This document shows positions 2,903 to 62,110 of a DNA stretch of 64,000 nt, piece by piece (position 1 is the first letter of the stretch; each line of letters opens with the position of its first letter). Location: positions 8,578 through 72,577 of the forward strand of contig DUOT01000109.1 of the NCBI GenBank assembly GCA_012838705.1, written 5' to 3'. The notes beneath the pieces were generated by a model. That model did no database searches. It was not told the origin of the DNA and saw only the letters and a program-made list of their open reading frames with translations. The DNA is from Acholeplasmataceae bacterium. GTDB taxonomy: Bacteria > Bacillota_I > Bacilli_A > ML615J-28 > CAG-698. The translations under genes were made by a program, and so were the position numbers.

Positions 2903-2977
2903 GTGGGATTTTATCTCACTCATTTATTGTAATATAGTACATAATATGATAAAATAAACAAAAGTAGTGTGATATAT

Positions 2978-4702
2978 ATGAATATAAAAGATAAATTACA
3001 AACACTTCCTCATAAGCCTGGTTGTTATTTAATGAAAGATGAGGAAGGGCAAATTATTTATGTTGGTAAAGCTAAAGATTTATATAATCGTGTTCGTAGT
3101 TATTTTGTTGGAAGTCATGATGCGAAAACAACAAAACTAGTTTCATTAATACATGATTTTGAATATATTATAACATCAAGCGAAACGGAAGCTTTTATTT
3201 TGGAAATGAATTTAATTAAAAAACATGATCCAAAATATAATATTTTGTTAACTGATGATAAATCTTATCCATATATATGTGTTACGGATGAAATGTATCC
3301 ACGAGTATTATATTCACGAGACGTCAATCAAAAACTCGGAAAGTATTATGGACCATATCCAAATGCGAAAGCAGCAAAAGAAATTGTTGATATGCTTAAT
3401 AAAATGTATCCATTTAGAAAGTGTAGGGTGTTACCAAAACGTGAATGTTTATATTATCATATAGGACAATGTCTTGCTCCATGTATTAAAAAAATTGACC
3501 CAAAGCAATATCAAGAAATGAAGAAAAGTGTTAATAATATATTAAAAGGGAATGTTACTTCAGAAATTAAAAAATTTGAAATATTAATGAATGAAGCTGC
3601 AAATAAATTAAATTATGAAAAAGCTATTGAGTATCGAAATTTAATAAATGATTTAAATGTTATTGGTGAACGCCAAAAGATGTCTGGCTTTTCTCAAGAT
3701 ACGGATGTTTTTGCTTATTATGCAAATGAAGAATATGTTAGTATTCAAGTATTTCATTTACGTAATGGGAATATGATTGAACGAAGTGGATTTTTATTCG
3801 ATAATTATGGTAATGCTCAAGATATATTCCAAGAGTTTATTGTTAAGTTTTATCAAGAGCAAAATAATCCAATTCCAAAGTTAATAATAGTTAGTTCTGG
3901 TGATAAAGAAGCATTAGAGGCAACATTAAAACATAGTGTTGAAATTCCAATACGAGGAAAGAAAAAAGAATTAGTTAAGCTTGTAGAGGATAATGCGATA
4001 AATAGGATTGATGCATTAATTAAAAGAAAAGAACTTGAATTCCAAAGAACTAGTGGTGCTAATAATGCTTTAGGAGAACTTTTAGGTATTGATAATCTAA
4101 AAGTAATTGAAGCTTTTGATAACTCTAATATATCCGGAACAAATGCTGTCAGTGCTATGGTAGTATTTATAGATGGAAAACCAAAGAAAAATTTATATCG
4201 AAAATATAAAATTAAAAGTGGTGCAGCAGGCGATACGCAAATGATGTATGAAGTAATATCACGAAGGTATAAAGATCCAAAAAATAATCCTGATTTGATA
4301 ATTGTTGATGGAGGCTTAGCGCAAGTAAATAGTGCTAATAAAGCATTAAATGATTTAGGTAGGGATTTAGAAGTTATTGGACTTGTTAAGGATGAAAAAC
4401 ACCGAACAAAATCAATTCTTTATAATAATGAAATCATTGATATTGAGAAAAATAGTTTTGAGTTTCGATTATTAGAAAGAATTCAAGAAGAAGTTCACCG
4501 TTTTGCAATTACATATTTCCACAAAACTCATTCAAAAAATACATTTACATCAAAACTTGATAATATAAAAGGAATTGGGAAAGTCAAGAAACAACAAATT
4601 CTAAAAATTTTAGGTGAAGATAATTTTGAAGAAAAGTTAAAATCATTAAAACTATCTGAAACGCAAATTAAAGAAGTTTTAAAACTGTTAAGTAGCAATT
4701 AA
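2978..4702 (+). CDS. uvrC: Excinuclease ABC subunit C
   Basis: GIY-YIG N-terminus (PGCYLMKDEEGQIIYVGKAKDLYNRVRSYF), a UvrC-sized protein, and a C-terminal HhH region. Start set at ATG 2978 (MNIKDKLQTLP) rather than the upstream GTG. Confidence 0.9.
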   Translation: MNIKDKLQTLPHKPGCYLMKDEEGQIIYVGKAKDLYNRVRSYFVGSHDAKTTKLVSLIHDFEYIITSSETEAFILEMNLIKKHDPKYNILLTDDKSYPYICVTDEMYPRVLYSRDVNQKLGKYYGPYPNAKAAKEIVDMLNKMYPFRKCRVLPKRECLYYHIGQCLAPCIKKIDPKQYQEMKKSVNNILKGNVTSEIKKFEILMNEAANKLNYEKAIEYRNLINDLNVIGERQKMSGFSQDTDVFAYYANEEYVSIQVFHLRNGNMIERSGFLFDNYGNAQDIFQEFIVKFYQEQNNPIPKLIIVSSGDKEALEATLKHSVEIPIRGKKKELVKLVEDNAINRIDALIKRKELEFQRTSGANNALGELLGIDNLKVIEAFDNSNISGTNAVSAMVVFIDGKPKKNLYRKYKIKSGAAGDTQMMYEVISRRYKDPKNNPDLIIVDGGLAQVNSANKALNDLGRDLEVIGLVKDEKHRTKSILYNNEIIDIEKNSFEFRLLERIQEEVHRFAITYFHKTHSKNTFTSKLDNIKGIGKVKKQQILKILGEDNFEEKLKSLKLSETQIKEVLKLLSSN

Positions 4703-4740
4703 AATCTCCCTTGCATATTATAATTTAGGGAGGGATTAAA

Positions 4741-4947
4741 TTGCGATCACACTTTTTAACAGCACGAGAGAAAGAAATATTTGATCTATTAGTGCAAAAT
4801 TATGATACATTAGAAATTTCTGATAAACTCAAAATTAGCGAAAAAACAGTTCGAAATCATATATCTAACGTTATTCAAAAGTTAGGTGTTAAAGGACGTA
4901 GCCAAGCAATTTTAGAATTAATAAGGATTGGCGAGTTAAAGTTATAG
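4741..4947 (+). CDS. gerE: LuxR/GerE-family HTH regulator, very close to sporulation regulator GerE
   Basis: 68 aa with TTG start. FLTAREKEIFDLLVQ...ISEKTVRNHISNVIQKLGVKGRSQAILELIRIGEL is near-identical in pattern to B. subtilis GerE. RBS AGGGAGGGA lies upstream. Confidence 0.8.
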   Translation: MRSHFLTAREKEIFDLLVQNYDTLEISDKLKISEKTVRNHISNVIQKLGVKGRSQAILELIRIGELKL

Positions 4948-4959
4948 AAAGGAAATAAC

Positions 4960-5811
4960 ATGAAAATTTACGGCAAGGTTTACAGTGTTGATAAAAAGCA
5001 AAGAATAATTTCAATAATAATAAATAAACGCTTAGAATACTTTCATATGTCGAATAAGGTTATGAGAGATTTCAAAGCGTATTTATATAAAAAACCATAT
5101 GTGTTTTTAGATGTGGAAGATGAAAAAGTAAGAATTAATGGTATTAAATGTTATCCAATTAAATATTTTATTAAGATAATTGTTCCAAGAATAAAAAGGA
5201 CTAATGTTTATTATGATTTATCAATGATTAGACGAAGCATTAGATCCTTGATGAATCGAATTGGGATGAAAATGTTTCTAGACTTAGAGTTTAGTTTGCC
5301 AACTAGTAATAGGAGACACATCCCAGAAATAATTCAATATGGAATGATTATTGAAGATGAAAATGGAAATATTGTTTTTGAAGATTCATCACTAGTAAAA
5401 CCAACACGCCGTAGTTCTTTAAATAAAAGAACATTAAAATTTTTATCATTAGATTATAAAAACTTTAATAATGCATGTTCTTATATAGAATTCTATCAAT
5501 TATTAGAAAGACTAATTAAAGAATATGATGTTAAGATAATTGCATGGGGTAAAAATGATATTATTGCCCTTGAAAAATCATTTAAAATCAATCACCTAAT
5601 GCCTTTAGATGTACAAAATAGATATATGAATTTAATGCAAGTAATGAAAAATTATTACAATTATAAACAGGAAAAGGGACTTTTTAGTACATATCATGAC
5701 TTAACAAATACAAAAGATGTTATTCAAACTCATGATGCATTTCAAGATGCATTTATTACGAGAGAAGTATTTCATCTTTTCAAACAAAAGATTAATGAGG
5801 ACGAAAACTAA
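4960..5811 (+). CDS. DEDDh 3'-5' exonuclease, KapD-like, with an extra N-terminal domain of about 100 aa
   Basis: Exo motifs FLDLEFS...EIIQYGMI (Exo I), AWGKNDIIAL (Exo II) and THDAFQDAF (Exo III, H-x4-D). The block is collinear with B. subtilis KapD. Good RBS AAAGGAAA before ATG 4960. Confidence 0.6.
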   Translation: MKIYGKVYSVDKKQRIISIIINKRLEYFHMSNKVMRDFKAYLYKKPYVFLDVEDEKVRINGIKCYPIKYFIKIIVPRIKRTNVYYDLSMIRRSIRSLMNRIGMKMFLDLEFSLPTSNRRHIPEIIQYGMIIEDENGNIVFEDSSLVKPTRRSSLNKRTLKFLSLDYKNFNNACSYIEFYQLLERLIKEYDVKIIAWGKNDIIALEKSFKINHLMPLDVQNRYMNLMQVMKNYYNYKQEKGLFSTYHDLTNTKDVIQTHDAFQDAFITREVFHLFKQKINEDEN

Positions 5812-5911
5812 AAAGTCCCATTATAATAATCCCTTTTGTATTTCTCTCTCTTTATAAACATAAGCGTAATGCTTATGTTTTTATTTTATAAATAAAAAAA
5901 TAGAAACGGTA

Positions 5912-7609
5912 TTATGCCGTTTCTACTTCCATAATGATAGGAATGATTATTGGTTTTCTTTCAGTTAGTTCATAAATAAAATTACTTAATTCATTAGAGA
6001 TAAATCCCTTTACAGAAGTATAATTTGGAACTTTATGTGTTTTCAAATAACGATCTAGCGTTGCTTTTGCTTTGTTTTGAATATTACTTACTAATTGTTC
6101 TGAGTTTTTCATATATATAAAGCCTCGTGATACAATTGCTGGATCAGCTATTTGTTTATGTTTATGAACAGTAAATATTGCTGTTACCATCCCATCTTCA
6201 GCTAAAAGCTTACGTTCTTTGATTATAGTTCCATCAATAACATGACCATTAGAATCGATATAAATTGTTCCCGATTTTACCATGTTATTTACATATGCAC
6301 CTTTTTTATTAATAGTTAATACTTCACCTAAATCTAAAGCGAAGCATTTGCTTTTTTCAATTCCAGTTTGAATTGCAAGGTTAATATGTTTGATTTGCAT
6401 TGCATATTCGCCATGGATCGGTGCAAAATACTCAGGTTTTGTTAGGACAAGCATTAATTTTAACTCTGTTTCCGAAGCATGACCAGAAGTATGGGTATCC
6501 GTTAGTGGGCTGTTAACAATTACTTCTGCACCAGCACGATATAGTTTGTTGATTGTAGAATTGATACTTTCTTGGTTCCCTGGAATTGGTGATGATGAAA
6601 AAACAACAGTATCACCAGGTATTAATTTAATTTGACGATGGGTACCATTAGCTATTCTTGATAGGGCAGCTAATGGTTCACCTTGAGAACCAGTACAGAG
6701 GATTGTAATCTTGTCTGGTGGTAAATGCGGGAATTCATTTGCTTTAATGAATGTTCCTTCTGGTGCCTTTATATAACCTAAGGATTGACCAACAGCGATA
6801 GTTTTTTCCATACTTCTTCCGAAAATAATAACTTTTCGGCCAACATTAACACTTGCCTCGATTATTTGTTGGACACGATAAACATTTGATGCAAAAGTTG
6901 CAATAATGATTCGACCTTTTATTTGTGAGAAGATTGTTCTTATATTTTTGCTTATTTCTTTCTCGGATGGTGACATAGCTTTTATACTAGCGTTTGTACT
7001 ATCGGAAAGTAAAAGTTTCACACCTCTTTTTGCATATGCAGTTAACTTATGATAGTCTGCTTGCTGGCCTAGTGGTGTTAAGTCGAATTTAAAATCTCCA
7101 GTATGAAGGATATAACCATACTTAGTTAATAAAGCTATTCCAAATGAGTCAGGAATACTATGATTTGTTCGAAAAAAGGAAACTTCAAAATGCTTAAATT
7201 TATAGACAGATTCATCATTAAATTCCACAATCTCACATTTTAATTGTGGGTATTCTTTTTGTTTATTTTTTATTAAGCCAACAGCAAGACCATTAGCATA
7301 AATTTTCGGGATTTTAACTGATTGTAATAAGTATGGAATTCCACCAATATGATCTTCGTGACCATGAGTAATAAAAAGGCCAACGATTTTGTCTTCATTA
7401 TCTTTTAGATATGTAAAATCGGGAAGTAAATAATCTATACCATAAGTACTGTCGGGGAAGAGGATTCCCGAATCAACAATGATTATTTCATCGCTGCATT
7501 CGAAAACATACATGTTTTTTCCTACTTCGCCGAGTCCACCTAAAGCAAAAAACTTTACATTATTGTCATTGAATCGTTCTACAATCGGCTTAGTATTATT
7601 TGAATTCAA
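5912..7609 (-). CDS. rnj: Ribonuclease J
   Basis: Metallo-beta-lactamase motif HGHEDHIGG followed by beta-CASP and a C-terminal domain. 565 aa. Confidence 0.9.
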   Translation of the reverse strand: MNSNNTKPIVERFNDNNVKFFALGGLGEVGKNMYVFECSDEIIIVDSGILFPDSTYGIDYLLPDFTYLKDNEDKIVGLFITHGHEDHIGGIPYLLQSVKIPKIYANGLAVGLIKNKQKEYPQLKCEIVEFNDESVYKFKHFEVSFFRTNHSIPDSFGIALLTKYGYILHTGDFKFDLTPLGQQADYHKLTAYAKRGVKLLLSDSTNASIKAMSPSEKEISKNIRTIFSQIKGRIIIATFASNVYRVQQIIEASVNVGRKVIIFGRSMEKTIAVGQSLGYIKAPEGTFIKANEFPHLPPDKITILCTGSQGEPLAALSRIANGTHRQIKLIPGDTVVFSSSPIPGNQESINSTINKLYRAGAEVIVNSPLTDTHTSGHASETELKLMLVLTKPEYFAPIHGEYAMQIKHINLAIQTGIEKSKCFALDLGEVLTINKKGAYVNNMVKSGTIYIDSNGHVIDGTIIKERKLLAEDGMVTAIFTVHKHKQIADPAIVSRGFIYMKNSEQLVSNIQNKAKATLDRYLKTHKVPNYTSVKGFISNELSNFIYELTERKPIIIPIIMEVETA

Positions 7610-9882: not shown

Positions 9883-10035
9883 TTATCGATAATTCCAAGA
9901 TGAACCTATGATTACAAGTAGAATAAATAATACTAGAATCAATGCGTATCCGCCGTAGCCATAACCAATACCAGTTCCATAGCCATAGCCACCGAAGCCA
10001 CCGCCGAAGCCACCGCAACAACCATAACCGTACAT
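9883..10035 (-). CDS. Small Gly/Tyr-rich protein, YjcZ-family sporulation-protein-like; not in the ORF track
   Basis: Reverse-strand ORF translating to [60 protein letters not shown] sits 6 nt upstream and a terminator follows. Confidence 0.5.
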
Positions 10036-10182
10036 ACTAATACCTCCTCTCATATCACTTTAATATATGATTAAAACATCCTAGTAGTTATTGGTTTTAC
10101 CTATATATTATTTTGTAAATATTATAAATTGTGATATAATATAAAAGCATAAACCAAAATACATAAATAGATTGGAGACAAA

Positions 10183-10425
10183 ATGGAAAAAGAATATTTA
10201 ATAGATTATGATATGTTTACTACAGGAGAAATTATTAAAATTATTAACTTTATGAGATTAATAGAAAGGACTAAAAATGAAAATATTGATCCTTCTCTAT
10301 TAAAGGAAAAGTATAATGAATATCGAAATATATTGAGAAATAAAGCATTAGAGAAAAAATATGATAAAATGCTGTATAATAAGTCTCAAGTATCTATTTA
10401 TGAAGTAATGAAATCCTTAAAATGA
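10183..10425 (+). CDS. Small hypothetical protein of 80 aa, possibly UPF0223/YktA-like
   Basis: ORF with a plausible RBS. The family guess rests only on remembered sequence pattern. Confidence 0.3.
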   Translation: MEKEYLIDYDMFTTGEIIKIINFMRLIERTKNENIDPSLLKEKYNEYRNILRNKALEKKYDKMLYNKSQVSIYEVMKSLK

Positions 10426-10722
10426 ATAATTTTGCGGAGATTCTTCTTCAAAATATCCACCGTCTGGGGTTTCGTGAATTCGTAAATAGTTTTCAAGTCG
10501 TGACACTCTTCTAGCAAGATTATTGAGTCGTCTTCTATTTTCGAGGATTTCTTGGATTAAACGATCGGATTGTAGTTGTGGATACATTCCTGCTTGCTGT
10601 CCAAAAGGACCTTGAAATTGCTGTGGACCTACACTAGGAAAAGGTTGCGGACCTCCTCCAGGAAAAGCTTGTGGGCCAACCCCAGGAAAAGGTTGATTAA
10701 ATCTTCTTTCCTTTTTAAACAT
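10417..10722 (-). CDS. Pro/Gly/Gln-repeat protein with a C-terminal coiled-coil-like tail
   Basis: Start set at MFKKERRF, which is preceded by RBS AAAGGAAGG. Repeats PFPGVGPQ / FPGGGPQ / FPSVGPQ, then DRLIQEILENRRRLNNLARRVSRLENYLRI. Confidence 0.4.
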   Translation of the reverse strand: MFKKERRFNQPFPGVGPQAFPGGGPQPFPSVGPQQFQGPFGQQAGMYPQLQSDRLIQEILENRRRLNNLARRVSRLENYLRIHETPDGGYFEEESPQNYSF

Positions 10723-11499: not shown

Positions 11500-11955
11500 A
11501 TGGCGATAGTATATATGATGATTGGGATACCGGGGTCAGGAAAATCAACTTATGCTTTATCCTTGAGTAAAGAAAAAGATATTCCAATTATATCTTCTGA
11601 TAAAGTAAGGGATATGCATCCTGATTGGGATGAAATTAAGATCTTTCCTGAAGTATATAGATTATGCGGAAAGTATTTAAAAGAAGAAAAAGATATTATT
11701 TTCGATGCAACAAATATTACTCCTAATGTTAGAGCAAGATTTGTAGAGAATGTAAAGAAATATGTAAGTGATTTTAAGATGCATGCAATAGTAATGATTG
11801 CAGATGTAAATACATGTGTTAGGCGTGTAAAGAAAAGAAATGAGGATAAAAATGAAAGATTTTTACCTCCGCATGTTGTTTATGTTTATAATGAAAAATT
11901 AATAATGCCTGATGAAAGTGAAGGGTTTATTGATATCAAAATCATAAATAATTGA
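11500..11955 (+). CDS. P-loop kinase, AAA_33/PNK-like
   Basis: Walker A GIPGSGKST and DATN (FDATNITP). Its start is coupled to the rsuA-like stop. Confidence 0.6.
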   Translation: MAIVYMMIGIPGSGKSTYALSLSKEKDIPIISSDKVRDMHPDWDEIKIFPEVYRLCGKYLKEEKDIIFDATNITPNVRARFVENVKKYVSDFKMHAIVMIADVNTCVRRVKKRNEDKNERFLPPHVVYVYNEKLIMPDESEGFIDIKIINN

Positions 11956-12002
11956 TTCACATATTTGCCCATATAGTAATAAATTATAATAGGAGGGATA
12001 AT

Positions 12003-12371
12003 ATGGAATCAAGAATGGACCGTTTTAGAGAATTTGCAAATAGACACCCCCTATTAAAAGATGAAGTTCGTAGTGGAAAAAGGACTTGGCAAAATATTTA
12101 CGAAGAATGGGTTTTATATGGAGAAAATGATTCCCAATGGAAACAATATGAAGTAAGTACAAATACGCAACCATCAAACGATCAAACTATGGACAGTATA
12201 AGGAATATCATTGGTTATATTCAGAAAATTAATCCCGATTCAATTACAAAAACATTAAATACAGTTCAAAAGGTTGTGCAAATAGTGCAAACATTAGGTG
12301 GCTCTTCAAGACGACCTATGCTACCAACCAATCAAATGATGCCAAGCATGTATAATGATTGGTGGGATTAA
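12003..12371 (+). CDS. ylbD: YlbD-like putative spore coat protein
   Basis: HPLLKDEVRSGKRTWQNIYEEWVLYGENDSQWKQY is collinear with B. subtilis YlbD. Start at MESRMDRF after RBS AGGAGGG. Confidence 0.45.
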   Translation: MESRMDRFREFANRHPLLKDEVRSGKRTWQNIYEEWVLYGENDSQWKQYEVSTNTQPSNDQTMDSIRNIIGYIQKINPDSITKTLNTVQKVVQIVQTLGGSSRRPMLPTNQMMPSMYNDWWD

Positions 12372-17410: not shown

Positions 17411-18685
17411 GTGGGCAAATATCATTTAATCGGAATTAAAGGCACGGGAATGTCAGCTCTAGCTGTTAGTTTAAAACAGTTAGGACATGAAGTTTCCGGT
17501 AGTGATGTCGAAGAACACTTTTTCACAACCCCCATTCTAAATGAAAATAATATATTAGTAACTTCTTTTGATGAAAAAAATATTACCGCAAATAAAACAT
17601 ATATAATTAGCACGGCTTTTGATAATAAAAATATTGAAGTTAAGAAAGTATTTTTAAAAAATTATAAATATTATTATTATCACGAATTTTTAGAAAAGTT
17701 TTATAAAGGTATTAAAATTGGTGTTAGTGGAGTTCATGGAAAAACCACAACAGCAATGTTAATAGCTTCTTTATTTGCTGATCAAAATATAAGTGCTGTT
17801 ATTGGTGATGGTACTGGAATTGGAAATAAAAATTATAAATATTTTATATTTGAAGCATGTGAATATAAAAATCATTTCCATATATTTAATTATGATTATT
17901 TAGTTATTAATAATATTGATTATGATCATCCTGATTTTTTTAATAGTTTAGAGGATGTAAAAAGGTCTTTTCAAATTGCGAGTGATAAAACTAAAGTATT
18001 AGTAATTAATGGCGATGATGAAAATGCAAAAGATATAAAAAATAATAATAAATATACATTCGGAATGAATGAAGCAAATTTTACTTCGTGTAAAATAAAG
18101 AAACAAGTTGAAACAGGATATTTTTTAGATATTATAATTGATAATAAACCTTATAAGTTTTATCTACCTTTCCTAGGAAAACATATGATTTATAATTTTC
18201 TTGCAAGTATTACTATTTATTATTTAACTGGTGGAAAGATGGATAATTTACAAGATAAAATATTGAAACTTAAATTACCAAAACGAAGAATGGAAGAACT
18301 CTTTTATTATGATAATATTATTATCGATGATTATGCACATCATCCAACAGAAATAAAAGCATGTATTAATGCTGTTAAGGAAAAGTATCCAAATAAAAAA
18401 ATTGTAGTATTATTTGAACCCCATACATACACTAGAACATTAGCACTAGAAGAAGATTTCAAAAATAGTTTTCAAGGTGCAGACGAAGTATATATTGCTA
18501 AGACATTTACATCGAAAAGAGAAAAGCATAATCCCTCATTAGAAAAGAAAGTTCGTGAGATTTTTGGGAATGCGAAAAGATTTCATTTAGGACTTTTATC
18601 AAGTTTAAAAAAATATCAAGGCAGCGTAATTATATTTATGGGGGCAGGAAATATTAGAAAATACATTTCAAAATTAATATCTTAA
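17411..18685 (+). CDS. murC: UDP-N-acetylmuramate--L-alanine ligase
   Basis: GTG start. KYHLIGIKGTGMSALA, and GVHGKTTT (GxxGKT P-loop). Confidence 0.9.
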   Translation: MGKYHLIGIKGTGMSALAVSLKQLGHEVSGSDVEEHFFTTPILNENNILVTSFDEKNITANKTYIISTAFDNKNIEVKKVFLKNYKYYYYHEFLEKFYKGIKIGVSGVHGKTTTAMLIASLFADQNISAVIGDGTGIGNKNYKYFIFEACEYKNHFHIFNYDYLVINNIDYDHPDFFNSLEDVKRSFQIASDKTKVLVINGDDENAKDIKNNNKYTFGMNEANFTSCKIKKQVETGYFLDIIIDNKPYKFYLPFLGKHMIYNFLASITIYYLTGGKMDNLQDKILKLKLPKRRMEELFYYDNIIIDDYAHHPTEIKACINAVKEKYPNKKIVVLFEPHTYTRTLALEEDFKNSFQGADEVYIAKTFTSKREKHNPSLEKKVREIFGNAKRFHLGLLSSLKKYQGSVIIFMGAGNIRKYISKLIS

Positions 18686-34852: not shown

Positions 34853-35613
34853 TTTATGGACTATTTGGTGAACATGAATTTACAAAGGAAGTTAATGAAA
34901 TATTAGAAAAGCGTGGACATATTCGTGATGATGAAAATCCTGAATTTGTTTTTTCCATTGGTGGCGACGGAACAATATTAAAAGCAATTAAGAAATATCA
35001 AAAACAAGTTGAAAATATTAAGTTTATTGGAATAAATCTTGGAAAACTCGGCTTTTATACAAGTTTTGAAAAGAAAGAATTAGAAGACGCAATTACTTTA
35101 GTTGAATCTGGTCAATATGAACTTGCTAAGTATAATCTTTTAGAATATTTATTAAAATCTAAGAATTTATATAAAAGTGGATTTGGGTTAAACGAAATTG
35201 CAATTATTAATCCAGTTCATACGCAAATTATTGATGTATATATTAATGATAAGCATTTTGAAACATTTAGGGGAACAGGTTTTCTAGCTTCAACTCCAAC
35301 TGGTTCAACTGCTTATAATAAATCTTTAGGTGGAAGTGTCATTGACCCAAATATTTGTGCTTTACAATTAACTGAAATAGCATCAATTAATAATCGTGTC
35401 TATAAAACTTTGGGTTCTCCTTTAGTTTTATCACAAAAGACATTGATTAAACTTAAGTCTGATTTTAGAAATACATATATTACTGTTGATGGTATGTATG
35501 AACATTTTAATAATATCGATGAAATAATTATTCGTTTATCAACAAGAACAGCTCAATTTATTGTTAAGCATGAAACGGATTTTTGGGATCGAGTTAAAAG
35601 AAGTTTTTTATAG
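34849..35613 (+). CDS. ppnK: NAD kinase
   Basis: GGDGTIL motif. ATGA start/stop overlap with relQ. Confidence 0.9.
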   Translation: MIYGLFGEHEFTKEVNEILEKRGHIRDDENPEFVFSIGGDGTILKAIKKYQKQVENIKFIGINLGKLGFYTSFEKKELEDAITLVESGQYELAKYNLLEYLLKSKNLYKSGFGLNEIAIINPVHTQIIDVYINDKHFETFRGTGFLASTPTGSTAYNKSLGGSVIDPNICALQLTEIASINNRVYKTLGSPLVLSQKTLIKLKSDFRNTYITVDGMYEHFNNIDEIIIRLSTRTAQFIVKHETDFWDRVKRSFL

Positions 35614-35627
35614 TGAGGAGTGAAATA

Positions 35628-36149
35628 ATGCCATATATTAAACCAGTATATGTTGCCTATGATGGCGCAAATGATTTAGAACATTACAAAGAAATGCAAG
35701 AATGGACCCAAAGTGATGGTTCAAAATTTAATTTTTATGATGGATTAGATTTATCTAAAAAAATTGATAAATTACCAGATGAAGAAGTAAAAAAATTAAT
35801 ATCAGAGCGAATTGATCAATCGGAAGTATTTGTATTATTGATAACAAAATTTACAAAAAGATATCGTAAATTTATCCGTTGGCAAGTTGAAGCTGCAATG
35901 AATTTACAAAAACCAATAATTGTTTTAAATATTAATAAAATTCGTTCAGTTGATTATGACCGTGTTCCGATGGTATTTAAACGAAAAAATTTATCTTTAC
36001 ATATAACATTCCAAGCACCAATTTTAGAATTTGCCCTTGAAAATTGGCCTAAGAGTCATTATGAACATTTAGAAAAGGAAGAAATTAAAACATATCGATA
36101 TACTGTAGATGTATATGAAAGCTTAAATTTATTTACAAGTGATAATTAA
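35628..36149 (+). CDS. TIR-like / nucleoside-2-deoxyribosyltransferase-like flavodoxin-fold domain protein (DUF1863/ThsB-like pattern)
   Basis: RBS GAGGAG 14 nt after the ppnK stop. N-terminal beta-strand plus acidic patch KPVYVAYDGANDL. RYRKFIRWQVEAAMNLQKPIIVL resembles ThsB RRWVRYEIMKS..KIIGI and NDT WEIGYAYALGKPVIGL, with the Glu conserved. Confidence 0.35.
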   Translation: MPYIKPVYVAYDGANDLEHYKEMQEWTQSDGSKFNFYDGLDLSKKIDKLPDEEVKKLISERIDQSEVFVLLITKFTKRYRKFIRWQVEAAMNLQKPIIVLNINKIRSVDYDRVPMVFKRKNLSLHITFQAPILEFALENWPKSHYEHLEKEEIKTYRYTVDVYESLNLFTSDN

Positions 36150-36810: not shown

Positions 36811-36898
36811 CTAATAAAAATGTTAGATTTTGTATTATGACATTAACACATTCTTTTTTTTAATCATATCGTATAATGATAGTAAAGGAGGTGTGGCT

Positions 36899-37222
36899 AT
36901 GAACTTTTCCCCATTTACTCCACCATTCGTAACAAACTTACCAGCAACAGTAACAACTTTACCACCAATTATTACTCGTAGTATGAATGTTGTGCATCGC
37001 TATAATATCATTAATCAACCGCATATACATGAACATTTAACACAAGTATGTACTCATAATATTAAACGTCATTTCTGCTGTCAAAGACCATTGTGTCAAG
37101 AGCATTGTACATTCAAAGAAGAATTTTGTGGGTGCCCAGGTCCAATGGGGCCAGGATCATGTGGTCGTCCGCTTGCGGATGTAGATTTTGATAACTTTGA
37201 TGATGTACCTATGTTTCAATAA
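36899..37222 (+). CDS. His/Cys-rich protein, CotD-like spore coat protein candidate
   Basis: Start MNFSPF after RBS AAAGGAGGTG. HRYNIINQPHIHEHLTQVCTHNIKRHFCCQ...CGCPGP resembles the CotD family. CATATCGTA (36865-73) upstream fits the sigma-K -10 CATAnnnTA. Confidence 0.4.
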   Translation: MNFSPFTPPFVTNLPATVTTLPPIITRSMNVVHRYNIINQPHIHEHLTQVCTHNIKRHFCCQRPLCQEHCTFKEEFCGCPGPMGPGSCGRPLADVDFDNFDDVPMFQ

Positions 37223-45433: not shown

Positions 45434-45763
45434 GTGATTTTAATGACAGATGATAATGGTCCATTATTGTTTATAAAATCTGTTAGCACCGAGGCAAAAG
45501 CACATAATCAAACTATTTTTGATAGTAGAAAACATATTATCAATAGTAAATTATCTGCTCGAGAGTATAATAAATTACTTAGAATAATAGAAATGTATAA
45601 GAAGAATCGACCGGTTTTGTGTAAGGTAGTTACTAAAAATCGTGTTGTGGAAGCAATCCCTTACCAATTAGATGACCGAATCTTATTATTGAAGACCCAA
45701 GATGGAAAGACAGAAAAACTTGATTCTTACTTAATTGAAAGTATTGAAATCATTAGTTTTTAG
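45434..45763 (+). CDS. Hypothetical protein, YolD-like pattern
   Basis: 109 aa. C-terminal pattern (REYNKLLRII..VVEAIPYQLDDRILLLKTQDG...IESIEII) resembles YolD-like proteins. Confidence 0.3.
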   Translation: MILMTDDNGPLLFIKSVSTEAKAHNQTIFDSRKHIINSKLSAREYNKLLRIIEMYKKNRPVLCKVVTKNRVVEAIPYQLDDRILLLKTQDGKTEKLDSYLIESIEIISF

Positions 45764-46185
45764 AATTCACAAACATCTTTTTCTTTAATACCTAATTTTA
45801 CAGGTTTGAAGCATTGAATACCACAAATGCAATCAACTTTAAGGATCGCTGTTAATTTTGTTGGTTTTAAGCATCCACCATCACGATCTAATAGTCTTAA
45901 TAATACGCAGCCATCTTTAATATCTTCAACGCGGAACACATTTGTTGTTTCGCTGAATACATCTAAGAATGCTGTGAATTTTGCATCGTTAGCAAGTGTT
46001 AGCATTACAGGACGTGTATCAAATGCTTTCATGATTAGCGGACCAGTACAGCCTACACAATCGTCATCAATAAAAGCTTCCTTTTGAATTTGGTCAATCT
46101 TCTTTAAAACTCGTAGAATACAATCAGTATCACGATGTTTATCATATCTGTTATCGTAATAATTATTTACTCTTTCACATGACAT
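45760..46185 (-). CDS. CotZ/CotY-family spore coat protein
   Basis: Cys-rich. VFRVEDIKDGCVLLRLLDRDGGC parallels CotZ FFRVERVHGSCATLSLL. The minus-strand upstream region has CATATATTA, a sigma-K -10-like element. Confidence 0.55.
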   Translation of the reverse strand: MSCERVNNYYDNRYDKHRDTDCILRVLKKIDQIQKEAFIDDDCVGCTGPLIMKAFDTRPVMLTLANDAKFTAFLDVFSETTNVFRVEDIKDGCVLLRLLDRDGGCLKPTKLTAILKVDCICGIQCFKPVKLGIKEKDVCEF

Positions 46186-59677: not shown

Positions 59678-61663
59678 ATGAAAAATAATAAGATTAAGCA
59701 TTTCAGTATTCTATTTATATTAAGTATTGCAATTTTAATAATTTTTATAAATTTTTTAATATATGACCTTCCTGATGTTTTATTATATCTAGGTTTTGTT
59801 TTATTAGGTTTAGGTTTAAGTTTAGAGATTAGTTTTTTCTCTCTTTATCACCAGCGTAATCGTATGAAGTTTTTAGAAGATCGAATGAAACTATGGAATA
59901 GTATTTCTTTCCGTGTCAAAAAGGCTGGAGAAATAGCTTTTAATGAAATGCCGATTGGGATTGTTGTTTTTAATCCTAATTTACAAATTGAATGGGCAAA
60001 TAATTATGCAAAAGAAATATTTTTAAGTCCATTAGTAGATCGTAATTTTCGAAATATAGATATTAATTTAGCGGACAATATTATTAAAAATAAAAAAGAG
60101 TTTATTGTAACTTTATACGGTAAGACATATTCATGTAGATTATTAATATCTGAAAATATTATATATTTAACTGATATTACTGAAAAAATTGCTTTAATGG
60201 AAAAATATGATCGGAGAATACTAGCCTTAGGAATTGTTAATTTAGATAATTTTGAAACTGCTTTAGGAGTTTTAGATGCTAAGGATCGTTCAATTCAAGT
60301 AAGTAATTTAATTGGAATATTAACTGAATGGGCAGATAAATATAATGTGTCTATAAAAGGTTATAGTGATGAGAGATTTATATTAATTCTTGATAAACAA
60401 AATTTAAATAGTTTAATTCAATCTAAATTTGATGTTCTTGATAATATTAAAGAATATTGTAATCGTGAGAATTTACGGATTACTGCTAGTATGGGTATTG
60501 CTTGTCGTGATATTGATACTATTGACTTAATGGATGAAGCAAATGAACAGCTTGAGCTAGCACTTAATCGTGGTGGTAATCAAGTAGTTGTAAAGGTAGA
60601 TGATGAAACACTTTACTTCGGTGCTAAAACAGAATCTATTGAAGCGAGAACTCCAATTAGTATTCGTTTCAAAACTGAAGAGTTAGTAGAACTAATTAAA
60701 AATGCAAGTAATATATTCATTCTAAGTCATAAATATATGGATGCGGATGGATTTGGATCTGCAATCGCACTCCGTGCAATTTGTAAGTCATTAGATCGAG
60801 AAGCAAAAATAATTTTTGATGAAGATTTAGTTGATGAAACAGTTGCAAATATTTATCAATCGATTAAAAAAGAACATATTATTTTTTTAAATGCTTTAAT
60901 TGATCCAAAAAAAGCTTATAATGAAATGACTGATGATTCACTTTTAATAATTACTGATTGTCAGTATCAAAGTCTTTTAATGGATGAAAAAGTATTTAAA
61001 AGGGCAAAACAAATTGCAATCATTGACCATCATCGTCAAAATACGATGGCAATTAGTGAAGCAAATTATATATATATTAATCCATCTGCTTCATCATCAG
61101 TAGAATTAATTGTAGAGATGCTAGATTTTATTGATGGTTATTATCTTTCTGAAATTGAAGCAACATGGTTATTAATTGGTATTCGTGTTGATACTAATAA
61201 CTTTGCATATCGAACAACAAGTCGAACATTTAATGTAGTTGCGAAACTGCAATCACTTGGTGCTGATATGGGGAAGGTCAGAAGGTATCTACGTGAAGAA
61301 TTTACTGATTATGTAAAGAGGACATCAATTCTAAACAATATGGAAATATTTGATGGTGAATATGGTATTGCTCTTTGCGATGATGATATTTATGAGCGGG
61401 CATTCCTTGCTAAGGTTGCTGACAATATGATTGGTGTTAAAGGAATTAAAATTGCATTTTGTATTGGTAAAATAAGTGAAGATACAGTTGGGATAAGTGC
61501 TCGTAGTTTAGAAGATGTAAATGTTCAAGTGATTATGGAGCGTCTTGGTGGTGGTGGACATTTTAATAATGCTGCTACACAAATAAAAGATATTACGATT
61601 GAAGATGCGAAAAAATTACTTGAAAAAACATTAAAATTATATGAAGGAGAAGGTCGTAAAAAT
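59678..61663 (+). CDS. gdpP: Cyclic-di-AMP phosphodiesterase GdpP (2TM-PAS-degenerate GGDEF-DHH/DHHA1), no stop codon before rplI
   Basis: Two N-terminal TM helices, a PAS-like region, DHH (AIIDHHRQN) and DHHA1 (GGGGH). The frame continues directly into rplI. Confidence 0.8.
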
Positions 61664-62110
61664 ATGAAAATTATACTAACAAAAGACATTAAAGGTCGTG
61701 GAAAGAAAAATGATATAATTGAGGTTCCGACAGGATATGCAAACCATCTTCTCAGAAATAAACAAGCAATTGCTGCTACTCCAGATAATATTAAGCAATT
61801 AGAATATGAAAAAAATCTTGAAAAAGAACGTGAATTAAAACATCTTAAAGAGATGGAAGCATTGAAGGAAAAAGTAGATTCTTCACCTCTAAAAATTGAA
61901 GTCAAAGTAGGAGAAAGTGGAAAGTTATTTGGTTCTGTAAGTACTAAAAATATTGTTGATGAATTTAAAAAACAATATGGTATTGAATTAGATAAAAGAA
62001 AATTAATATTAGATAGTGAGATTAATGGCCTTGGTACTTATCAAATTCCAATTCAATTACATAAAAATATTGTAGCCACAATCACACTATTTGTAGTTGA
62101 GAAAGTATAA
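61664..62110 (+). CDS. rplI: 50S ribosomal protein L9
   Basis: MKIILTKDIKGRGKKNDIIEVPTGYANHLL is collinear with B. subtilis L9. An internal RBS GGAGAAGG lies 10-14 nt upstream of the ATG. Confidence 0.85.
   Translation: MKIILTKDIKGRGKKNDIIEVPTGYANHLLRNKQAIAATPDNIKQLEYEKNLEKERELKHLKEMEALKEKVDSSPLKIEVKVGESGKLFGSVSTKNIVDEFKKQYGIELDKRKLILDSEINGLGTYQIPIQLHKNIVATITLFVVEKV

Follow-up and report, generated by a model that had tools for sequence, protein, structure and literature searches.

A gerE-exonuclease pair behind a sigma-K-type promoter adjoins uvrC in reduced-genome Bacilli

We looked at a 64-kb stretch of DNA (the window, ~30% GC) from a genome labelled Acholeplasmataceae bacterium, and in it at a gene for the sporulation regulator GerE that is followed 12 nucleotides (nt) downstream by a gene for a 3'-5' exonuclease of the DEDDh type. 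The explanation that we favour, and hold to be rather probable, is that uvrC, gerE and the exonuclease gene form one unit with a vegetative and an internal sigma-K-type promoter, and that the exonuclease is linked first of all to UvrC. This reading is built on the conservation of the promoter among related loci, on the constant position of uvrC next to the exonuclease gene, and on the repeated loss of gerE from between them while the exonuclease was retained. The gerE-exonuclease pair itself is most likely a late mother-cell transcript nested in the uvrC operon.

Results

Organization of the locus

The features of the locus are given below with their coordinates in the window, their strand and the evidence used.

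2561-2905, + strand: rbfA, a reading frame with a terminator-like hairpin after it
2927-2955, + strand: candidate sigma-A-type promoter for uvrC, TTGTAA, 17 nt, TAAAAT, with TG just before the second hexamer (consensus scan)
2969-4702, + strand: uvrC, excinuclease C subunit with GIY-YIG, UVR and UvrC RNase H-like domains (open reading frame (ORF), Pfam)
4692-4722, + strand: internal sigma-K-type promoter, -35 GTAGCA at 4692-4697 and -10 CATATTATA at 4714-4722 (51-locus logo)
4705-4733, + strand: inverted repeat, TCTCCCT (4705-4711) and AGGGAGG (4727-4733), which could pair the gerE Shine-Dalgarno (SD) sequence
4741-4947, + strand: gerE orthologue, 68 residues, TTG start, stand-alone LuxR-type helix-turn-helix (HTH) protein (ORF, PF00196, phmmer against PDB)
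4948-4959, + strand: 12-nt gerE-exonuclease spacer AAAGGAAATAAC, which holds the exonuclease SD (sequence)
4960-5811, + strand: exonuclease ORF, 283 residues
4960-5265, + strand: N-terminal OB-fold domain, residues 1-102, strands 1 to 3, a helix, strands 4 and 5
5266-5811, + strand: ERI-1/3'hExo/KapD-type DEDDh 3'-5' exonuclease domain, residues ~103-283 (NCBIfam KapD, Foldseek, catalytic residues)
5856-5880, + strand: intrinsic-terminator-like hairpin ending the uvrC-gerE-exonuclease unit (terminator scan)
5930-5896, - strand: rnj terminator, facing the 5856-5880 hairpin (terminator scan)
5912-7609, - strand: rnj, RNase J, convergent with the exonuclease gene (ORF, Pfam)

The gerE stop codon TAG lies at 4945-4947 and the exonuclease ATG at 4960, exactly where a preliminary description of this DNA had placed the two genes. 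Since the spacer is only 12 nt long, there is neither a promoter nor a terminator between them in the window. This tight packing is common: the gap was 7-34 nt in 48 of the 52 loci that carry gerE (window included), with no room for a terminator, and AAAGGA, the SD, was conserved at the spacer position in many loci. The gap between uvrC and gerE was estimated at 30-67 nt in the same kind of loci, and a scan of the window found no terminator-like site between uvrC and the end of the exonuclease gene. From this gene packing and the placement of the terminators, we infer that uvrC, gerE and the exonuclease gene are co-transcribed. UvrC is identified by four Pfam domains (PF08459 with 164.7 bits, PF22920, PF01541 and PF02151), and the sigma-A-type promoter proposed in front of it at 2927-2955 is a weak candidate, such consensus matches occurring at chance frequency. 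In three loci (L005, L011 and L041), the gerE-exonuclease gap is 58-82 nt long, AT-rich and contains sigma-A-like TATACT/TATAAT strings; there, the exonuclease gene may have gained an extra promoter.

uvrC is the constant neighbour of the exonuclease gene

Comparison loci were obtained by a scan with one genome per species, which gave 80 loci from metagenome-assembled genomes (MAGs) and isolates labelled Bacilli, Acholeplasmatales, Mollicutes, Anaeroplasma, 'Coprobacillus sp. CAG:698', 'Staphylococcus sp. CAG:324' or similar. The analysis covered the 64 kb of the window for this genome and a neighbourhood of 7-13 kb for each relative. uvrC and gerE were located in the related loci by tblastn, and uvrC was judged in the 77 loci having upstream DNA. 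It was found immediately upstream of the exonuclease gene or of gerE in all of them (77/77), a linkage that the preliminary description had missed. gerE was present between the two genes in 51 loci and in the window, and absent in 27 informative loci. The 27 loci without gerE were also devoid of the promoter, and their exonuclease start was positioned -11 to 26 nt from the uvrC stop (50 nt in one case) with only an SD between. In P0189 and P0202, which among the full-length members found with the OB profile are the two most remote, the exonuclease start overlaps the uvrC stop, and one of them has a different upstream context, recD2-tkt-gmk-rpoZ-uvrC. The junction between uvrC and the exonuclease gene, often an overlapping one, was kept down to 33% exonuclease identity. 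Because uvrC adjoins in every locus with upstream DNA and in the remote members, uvrC and the exonuclease gene are the invariant pair, probably coupled in translation, with gerE as a facultative insert.

On a neighbour-joining tree of UvrC and the exonuclease, the presence of gerE changed at least nine times. Since the cassette is homologous and always at one site, repeated loss is far more likely than repeated gain, judging from these sequences. The loci share a downstream synteny of rnj, HAD, def, orf80 and rluB, and for genes within 6 kb, co-loss was counted in loci retaining def. A yjcZ-like gene was found in 30/33 loci with gerE and in 0/13 loci without it (Fisher p=5.5e-9, a value that treats related loci as independent). 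Likewise, ylbD was detected in 24 loci with gerE against 0 without, and a gene for a glutamine/proline-rich (Q/P-rich) protein in 20 against 0, while the housekeeping neighbours def, rluB and HAD persisted in both kinds of loci.

The exonuclease behaved differently from these sporulation-type genes. Its catalytic DEDDh residues and the conserved residues of its OB domain were kept in 28/28 loci without gerE (the 27 informative ones and one at a contig end) as well as in 52/52 loci with gerE, window included. With these residues intact in both groups, the exonuclease is under selection whether or not sporulation-type genes are present. Its retention in the 27 loci that lack gerE, the promoter and the neighbouring sporulation-type genes indicates that it is not a sporulation-specific gene. 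An operonic gerE-exonuclease pair had been taken as a hint of a late-sporulation function. The sigma-K-type promoter, the 7-34 nt packing and the spore-coat-type genes of the window agree with that idea. The exonuclease gene, however, belongs first of all to the uvrC operon: it is kept without gerE and has uvrC as its invariant partner.

A conserved sigma-K-type promoter precedes gerE

The signature of sigma-K promoters is AC at -35, a spacer of ~17 nt and CATAnnnTA at -10, and sigma-E promoters have the same -10 with ATA at -35 (Saujet 2013, PMC3789822). In the window, the -35 element GTAGCA sits within the last codons of uvrC, and transcription is predicted to start near 4729-4731. For the logo, 51 gerE-containing loci were aligned on CATA, so that CATAnnnT[A/G] is found in 51/51 by construction; one further locus with gerE had no match. 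The resulting consensus was GTnAC[C/A], 16 nt, GCATAnnnTA, with G at -22 in 40 loci, T at -21 in 45, A at -19 in 42, C at -18 in 43, C or A at -17, and G at -1 in 36, then CATAnnATA. The spacing was fixed although the uvrC stop ranges from 5 to 32 nt upstream of CATA, and the -35 box is therefore often inside the uvrC coding sequence. From these alignments, such a fixed spacing is hard to explain except by selection on the promoter. The distance from CATA to the gerE start was 24-41 nt in all but three of the 51 loci, which fits a short leader bearing an SD. At 30% GC, one CATAnnnTA by itself is not significant; significance comes from finding it conserved, always at the same position, in 51 related loci. 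The preliminary description had matched CATATTATA at 4714-4722 to the sigma-K -10, and this assignment was strengthened by the 51-locus conservation with AC 17 nt upstream. The conserved gerE promoter is thus of the sigma-K type, which makes sigma-K the presumed factor using it.

We also looked at where else this motif occurs. In the window, AC-16/17-CATAnnnTA precedes the YjcZ-family, Q/P-rich, CotZ-family and CotD-like genes described below. Among the related loci, the full AC-16/17-CATA motif was present upstream of the Q/P-rich gene in 12/20, and the -10 element CATAnnnTA alone upstream of the yjcZ-like gene in 20/28. It was found upstream of none of the housekeeping genes tested in these loci (HAD 0/40, def 0/41, rluB 0/22, YhhN 0/12). 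An apparent sigma-K-like motif upstream of infB in 12/72 loci was discarded as a slicing artefact that caught gerE promoters. In a quick visual check around the promoter, the GerE box, with the consensus RWWTRGGYnnYY, gave only 7/8 matches, overlapping the SD.

The regulator is a GerE orthologue

The 68-residue protein matched Pfam PF00196 with 67 bits against a cut-off of 23.5, over residues 6-58, and has neither a receiver nor a ligand domain. In a phmmer search of PDB, it matched Bacillus subtilis GerE (1FSE) with E=1.2e-23 and 85 bits, 44/64 residues being identical as counted from the alignment (69%), and the GerE homologue 6JQS with E=1.2e-25 and 91.5 bits (48/64 identical). The best chain other than GerE was far weaker, with 46 bits. 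Over the 51 related loci with gerE, GerE identity was 65-96%, and that of UvrC in the same loci was 46-84%. By these matches, the likeness to GerE noticed in the preliminary description is that of a true orthologue. gerE is preceded by the SD GGGAGGG, located 6-7 nt 5' of the TTG start.

This SD can pair with the upstream arm of the inverted repeat. In the window, the duplex reaches -12.4 kcal/mol against a mean of -6.6 for shuffled sequences, and 3/100 shuffles were as good. Across 51 loci, anti-SD pairing was significant in a subset only (Wilcoxon p=5e-4, the loci being non-independent), and only about 1/3 of them beat the shuffled controls. An anti-SD hairpin as a universal feature was therefore rejected. 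Comparable pairings were detected in several clades with different sequences, such as CCTCCTATAT/ATATAGGAGG in L032. Because its upstream arm precedes the predicted internal start, the repeat could, tentatively, sequester the gerE SD only in RNA reading through from uvrC. In vegetative cells, GerE would thereby stay off, and translation of the exonuclease would go on from its own SD.

The exonuclease combines an OB fold with a KapD-like DEDDh domain

To describe the exonuclease, we used profile searches, homologue alignments and a structure model. Its only NCBIfam match (E<0.1) was NF005838 (KapD), with E=3.4e-20 and 72.4 bits against a cut-off of 169; residues 105-276 align collinearly with positions 7-178 of the 207 of the model (172 residues). 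The DEDDh residues are D108, E110, D200, H258 and D263, invariant in 26 aligned homologues and in 80/80 translated genes (79 related loci and the window). The collinearity with KapD claimed in the preliminary description is thus borne out. Pfam RNase_T (PF00929) reached 22.3 bits, just under its gathering score of 24, while many close homologues carry a precomputed PF00929 match. A phmmer search against PDB sequences gave a marginal match to CRN-4 only (E=0.012). The AlphaFold2 model of the protein was confident (predicted local distance difference test score, pLDDT, 89.7) and showed two domains. Foldseek against PDB matched the C-terminal one to ERI2 (7n8v, 1e-8), then to CRN-4, 3'hExo and ERI3, so that the fold was clear where the Pfam score fell short. 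Since it lies below the equivalog cut-off and has a different architecture, the protein is better described, by its sequence, as KapD-like than as KapD.

The N-terminal part, which had been presented as about 100 residues of an unknown domain, can now be named: in the model, its five strands form a barrel, a helix is placed between the third and the fourth, and the structure matches SSB, RPA, PriB and the N-domains of aminoacyl-tRNA synthetases. The N-terminal ~100 residues are accordingly a real, conserved OB fold, which resembles both OB domains binding single-stranded DNA and those binding tRNA. In the 26-homologue alignment, the N-terminal 100 residues were as well conserved as the catalytic part, the residues conserved family-wide including M1, G5, R15, F38, Y41, F70, K72 and Y85. 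Because the first ~100 residues are conserved along the whole family, the MKIYGK start is real and this region is translated and functional; a later start at MKMFLDLEF is ruled out by the same conservation.

A database search returned 316 homologues of the exonuclease. Among the 120 listed, almost all had 278-294 residues and 97-100% query coverage. One NCBI protein, from a MAG named 'Acholeplasmataceae bacterium', was 100% identical. When the domain profile was run against 1.84 billion representative proteins, only 92 clusters were found, all with the ~276-310-residue architecture or fragments of it. The family is thus narrow and its architecture fixed.

Other sporulation-type genes of the window

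Several genes elsewhere in the window are relevant to the sporulation status of the host.

9883-10038, - strand: YjcZ-family sporulation protein, tiny, glycine/tyrosine-rich, membrane (TIGR01732, 26.8 bits against 21.35)
10088-10061, - strand: promoter of the yjcZ-like gene, exact AC-17-CATATATTA (motif scan)
10417-10722, - strand: Q/P-rich protein with a C-terminal coiled-coil-like segment, preceded by AC-16-CATATTATA
11952-12371, + strand: YlbD_coat family protein (Pfam, 82.7 bits), CATATAGTA upstream
17411-18685, + strand: MurC-like UDP-N-acetylmuramate-alanine ligase (by eye only)
36846-36873, + strand: promoter of the CotD-like ORF, exact AC-17-CATATCGTA (motif scan)
36899-37222, + strand: cysteine/histidine-rich CotD-like ORF, 107 residues, resembling the inner spore-coat protein CotD by eye
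45760-46185, - strand: CotY/CotZ-family spore-coat gene (Pfam Spore-coat_CotZ, 34.4 bits against a cut-off of 24)

At the CotZ-family gene, CATATATTA precedes the start by ~27 nt, and AC stands 16 nt further upstream. The Q/P-rich protein gave no match in Pfam or NCBIfam and may be an undescribed coat or late mother-cell protein; the CotD-like ORF gave none either. From its sequence, the true start of ylbD is probably the ATG near 12003. The MurC-like gene suggests an organism with a cell wall and a misleading taxonomic label. According to genome surveys, the orders RF39, RFN20, ML615J-28 and Acholeplasmatales include predicted spore formers; sporulating and non-sporulating species are mixed in them, with multiple independent losses (Field et al. 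2024, PMC10868615). The supplement of that study held nothing usable as presence tables for gerE, sigK, kapD, cotZ or ylbD. A non-sporulating mollicute, as the NCBI label would have it, was rejected on the basis of the CotZ, YlbD_coat and YjcZ family genes and murC, together with that survey.

Apart from these genes, a stand-alone protein with a ThsB-type TIR-like domain (35613-36149, + strand; Pfam ThsB_TIR, 49.3 bits) is encoded directly after an NAD kinase gene, and no ThsA-like partner was noticed nearby. An ORF of 810 residues (59678-62110, + strand), examined by eye, runs from a membrane-anchored DHH/GdpP-like part into a part like ribosomal protein L9 (MKIILTKDIKGRGKK...) with no stop between; this may be a true fusion, or else two genes that run on in one frame.

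Discussion

In the explanation that we prefer, the locus would be a single transcription unit, uvrC-gerE-exonuclease, read through entirely from a vegetative promoter 5' of uvrC. A second promoter, of the sigma-K type and straddling the uvrC stop, would give a short gerE-exonuclease mRNA late in the mother cell, where GerE would act as the late HTH regulator. The OB fold of the exonuclease would hold single-stranded nucleic acid and feed its 3' end into the ERI-1/KapD-type DEDDh active site. The primary and older partnership of the enzyme would be with UvrC: its target, to be trimmed or degraded, could be the excised oligonucleotide or the single strand with a 3' end that remains after UvrC has cut. 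Spore-forming members would in addition boost it together with GerE, and lineages giving up sporulation would have deleted gerE and its promoter cleanly and kept uvrC and the exonuclease gene translationally coupled. That the gerE-exonuclease pair belongs to the late mother cell is supported by the conserved promoter, by the spore-coat-type genes in the window and by B. subtilis kapD, which is transcribed by sigma-E and sigma-K and activated by GerE (PMC11736430).

Several observations weigh against this explanation. The -35 of the window reads GC and not AC (G for A at -19), so that this copy has the -10 and the spacing only, and the -10 also fits a sigma-A hexamer, TAnnnT, at a spacer of 18 nt. 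None of sigK, sigE and spo0A was seen in the 64 kb of this genome or in the 7-13 kb per relative. The loci are phylogenetically related, and both the Fisher and the Wilcoxon p-values overstate their independence. Among characterised proteins, those closest to the catalytic domain (KapD, ERI-1, 3'hExo) are RNases rather than enzymes of DNA repair. Being a conserved neighbour of uvrC is no proof of acting in the same pathway, and the degradative activity of the exonuclease is itself a prediction. The clues to the substrate diverge, with RNases as sequence relatives and a DNA-repair nuclease as genomic partner.

These RNase relatives are the starting point of the view that the enzyme serves these reduced genomes as a housekeeping 3'-5' exoribonuclease, maturing or degrading RNA, and that its gene hitch-hikes in the uvrC operon while having nothing to do with excision repair, the sigma-K promoter mattering only for gerE. 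ERI3 can be added to the RNases of this branch, RNA is what the anticodon-binding type of aminoacyl-tRNA synthetase OB folds binds, the RNase J gene runs convergently to the exonuclease gene, and the latter is retained irrespective of sporulation status. Yet the uvrC junction is kept in every locus examined, even at 33% identity and in a rearranged context, a degree of conservation beyond what drift tends to leave. The same fold occurs in DEDDh exonucleases that act on DNA, such as CRN-4, TREX and DnaQ, and there is a known fusion of a UvrC-type nuclease with a DEDDh exonuclease (PMC1564403). We regard this view as unlikely, though one to be taken seriously. The exonuclease could on the other hand be a KapD orthologue dedicated to sporulation, made only with GerE in the late mother cell for RNA processing (of sigK mRNA for example, as KapD) and perhaps held in the coat by the CotY/Z homologue. 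KapD being the sole NCBIfam match, the ERI-1/3'hExo-like fold shared with KapD, the sigma-K-type promoter in front of the pair, the CotZ-family gene of the window, and in B. subtilis the activation of kapD by GerE and the binding of KapD to CotY all speak for it. It is hard to reconcile with DEDDh and OB residues that stay intact in 27-28 loci without gerE and promoter, which, where downstream DNA is present, are also without the yjcZ-like, ylbD and Q/P-rich genes. The constant junction to the uvrC transcription unit, a score far below the KapD equivalog cut-off and the extra OB domain point the same way, making a dedicated KapD quite improbable.

The element in front of gerE might also be no sporulation promoter. 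The hosts would then be non-sporulating, the GerE-like protein a vegetative regulator, the motif a sigma-A promoter or an operator of the GerE-like protein, and the inverted repeat, which flanks the element in the window and in some clades, a binding site. The NCBI label, the TAnnnT reading of the -10 and the missing core spo genes in 64 kb would fit. However, the -35 base most important to sigma-A, the G of TTGACA, is the variable position here, while G-22, T-21 and the CA before the -10 are conserved instead. The motif precedes the CotZ-family, YjcZ-family and other small sporulation-type genes and no housekeeping gene, the CotZ, YlbD_coat and YjcZ matches pass curated cut-offs, the cassette is co-lost with sporulation-type genes, and published surveys predict spore formers in these orders (PMC10868615). 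We consider such a vegetative element very unlikely, and retain the unit with two promoters and a UvrC-linked exonuclease.

GerE, sigma-K-type promoters, KapD/ERI-1 exonucleases and OB folds are all of already known kinds. In the literature, we found no description of the OB plus KapD-like architecture, of its universal coupling to uvrC, or of a nested sigma-K-type gerE cassette with repeated clean excision, and no link of KapD with uvrC or of gerE with RF39. A gerE-KapD-like operon behind a sigma-K-type promoter in distant, reduced Bacilli is independent comparative evidence that GerE and exonucleases of this type go together in late sporulation. The enzyme's link to uvrC, which is tighter and older, makes it a candidate OB-fold DEDDh exonuclease that may act in excision repair; to our knowledge, no 3'-5' exonuclease of this kind has been assigned to nucleotide excision repair in bacteria. 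Since the presence or absence of the gerE cassette at its one site follows the loss of sporulation-type genes nearby, the cassette could be a one-locus marker of the capacity to sporulate in uncultured genomes of RF39, RFN20, ML615J-28 and Acholeplasmatales. A caveat on labelling follows as well, MAGs labelled Acholeplasmataceae being able to carry spore-coat and cell-wall genes.

Comparison with known systems

Like B. subtilis GerE (1FSE), the regulator of the window is a stand-alone LuxR-type HTH protein of ~70 residues with the same architecture. The recognition-helix stretch ISEKTVRNHISN..QKLGVKGRSQA is identical, and its gene is preceded by an AC-17-CATAnnnTA-type promoter. It differs in coming from a reduced-genome member of the Bacilli labelled Acholeplasmataceae or Mollicutes, and in the nesting of its gene in a uvrC operon with an exonuclease gene 12 nt after it. 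B. subtilis gerE is, we presume, monocistronic and a few genes away from uvrC, which would make the uvrC-gerE adjacency an ancestral relic; our literature search on the B. subtilis uvrC...gerE gene order gave nothing.

As proposed for the gerE-exonuclease pair, sigma-K and GerE drive a 3'-exoribonuclease in B. subtilis. This enzyme, KapD, is of the ERI-1/3'hExo family, and CotY recruits it to the spore crust (PMC11736430, 2025). The exonuclease of the window resembles KapD in a DEDDh core collinear with nearly the whole NF005838 model, in the ERI-1/3'hExo-like fold of its catalytic domain, in a link to sigma-K and GerE (regulatory in B. subtilis, predicted here to run through the shared gerE transcript), and in a CotY/Z-family gene in the same genome. 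In contrast to KapD, which has ~205 residues and a single domain, it counts 283 with the extra N-terminal OB fold and reaches 72 bits where the equivalog cut-off is 169, and its family is always attached to uvrC and kept in lineages without gerE and the neighbouring sporulation genes. Two other exonucleases carry an OB fold. In the large subunit of ExoVII, XseA, it is joined to a catalytic domain unrelated to DEDDh, and the protein has no sequence similarity to the one of the window. B. subtilis YhaM is an OB plus HD 3'-5' exonuclease, which differs likewise by an unrelated catalytic domain and no sequence similarity.

The closest precedent for the uvrC link is found in mycobacteria, where a Cho-like GIY-YIG nuclease is fused to an epsilon-type (DnaQ-type) 3'-5' exonuclease, proposed to digest the damaged strand from the 3' incision (PMC1564403). 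In both cases, an incision nuclease of the UvrC family is coupled to a DEDDh 3'-5' exonuclease, and the fusion can serve as a model of how the pair might work; the comparison is one of analogy and not of membership. Here, the two activities would reside in separate proteins encoded by coupled genes, with ORFs adjacent or overlapping by 8-17 nt, the partner is a full-length UvrC instead of Cho, and the putative exonuclease is of the ERI-1/KapD branch with an OB fold. We offer as a speculation, and a doubtful one, that UvrC-dependent excision repair in Acholeplasmatales, RF39, RFN20 and ML615J-28 has a dedicated accessory exonuclease in the OB-fold/KapD-like protein. This would be a two-protein equivalent of the Cho-epsilon fusion, and its exonuclease would have been captured by the sigma-K/GerE cassette. 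If true, this capture would show a repair exonuclease recruited into the late mother-cell programme, and would suggest a possible evolutionary route to the KapD-GerE-sigma-K circuit of Bacillus.

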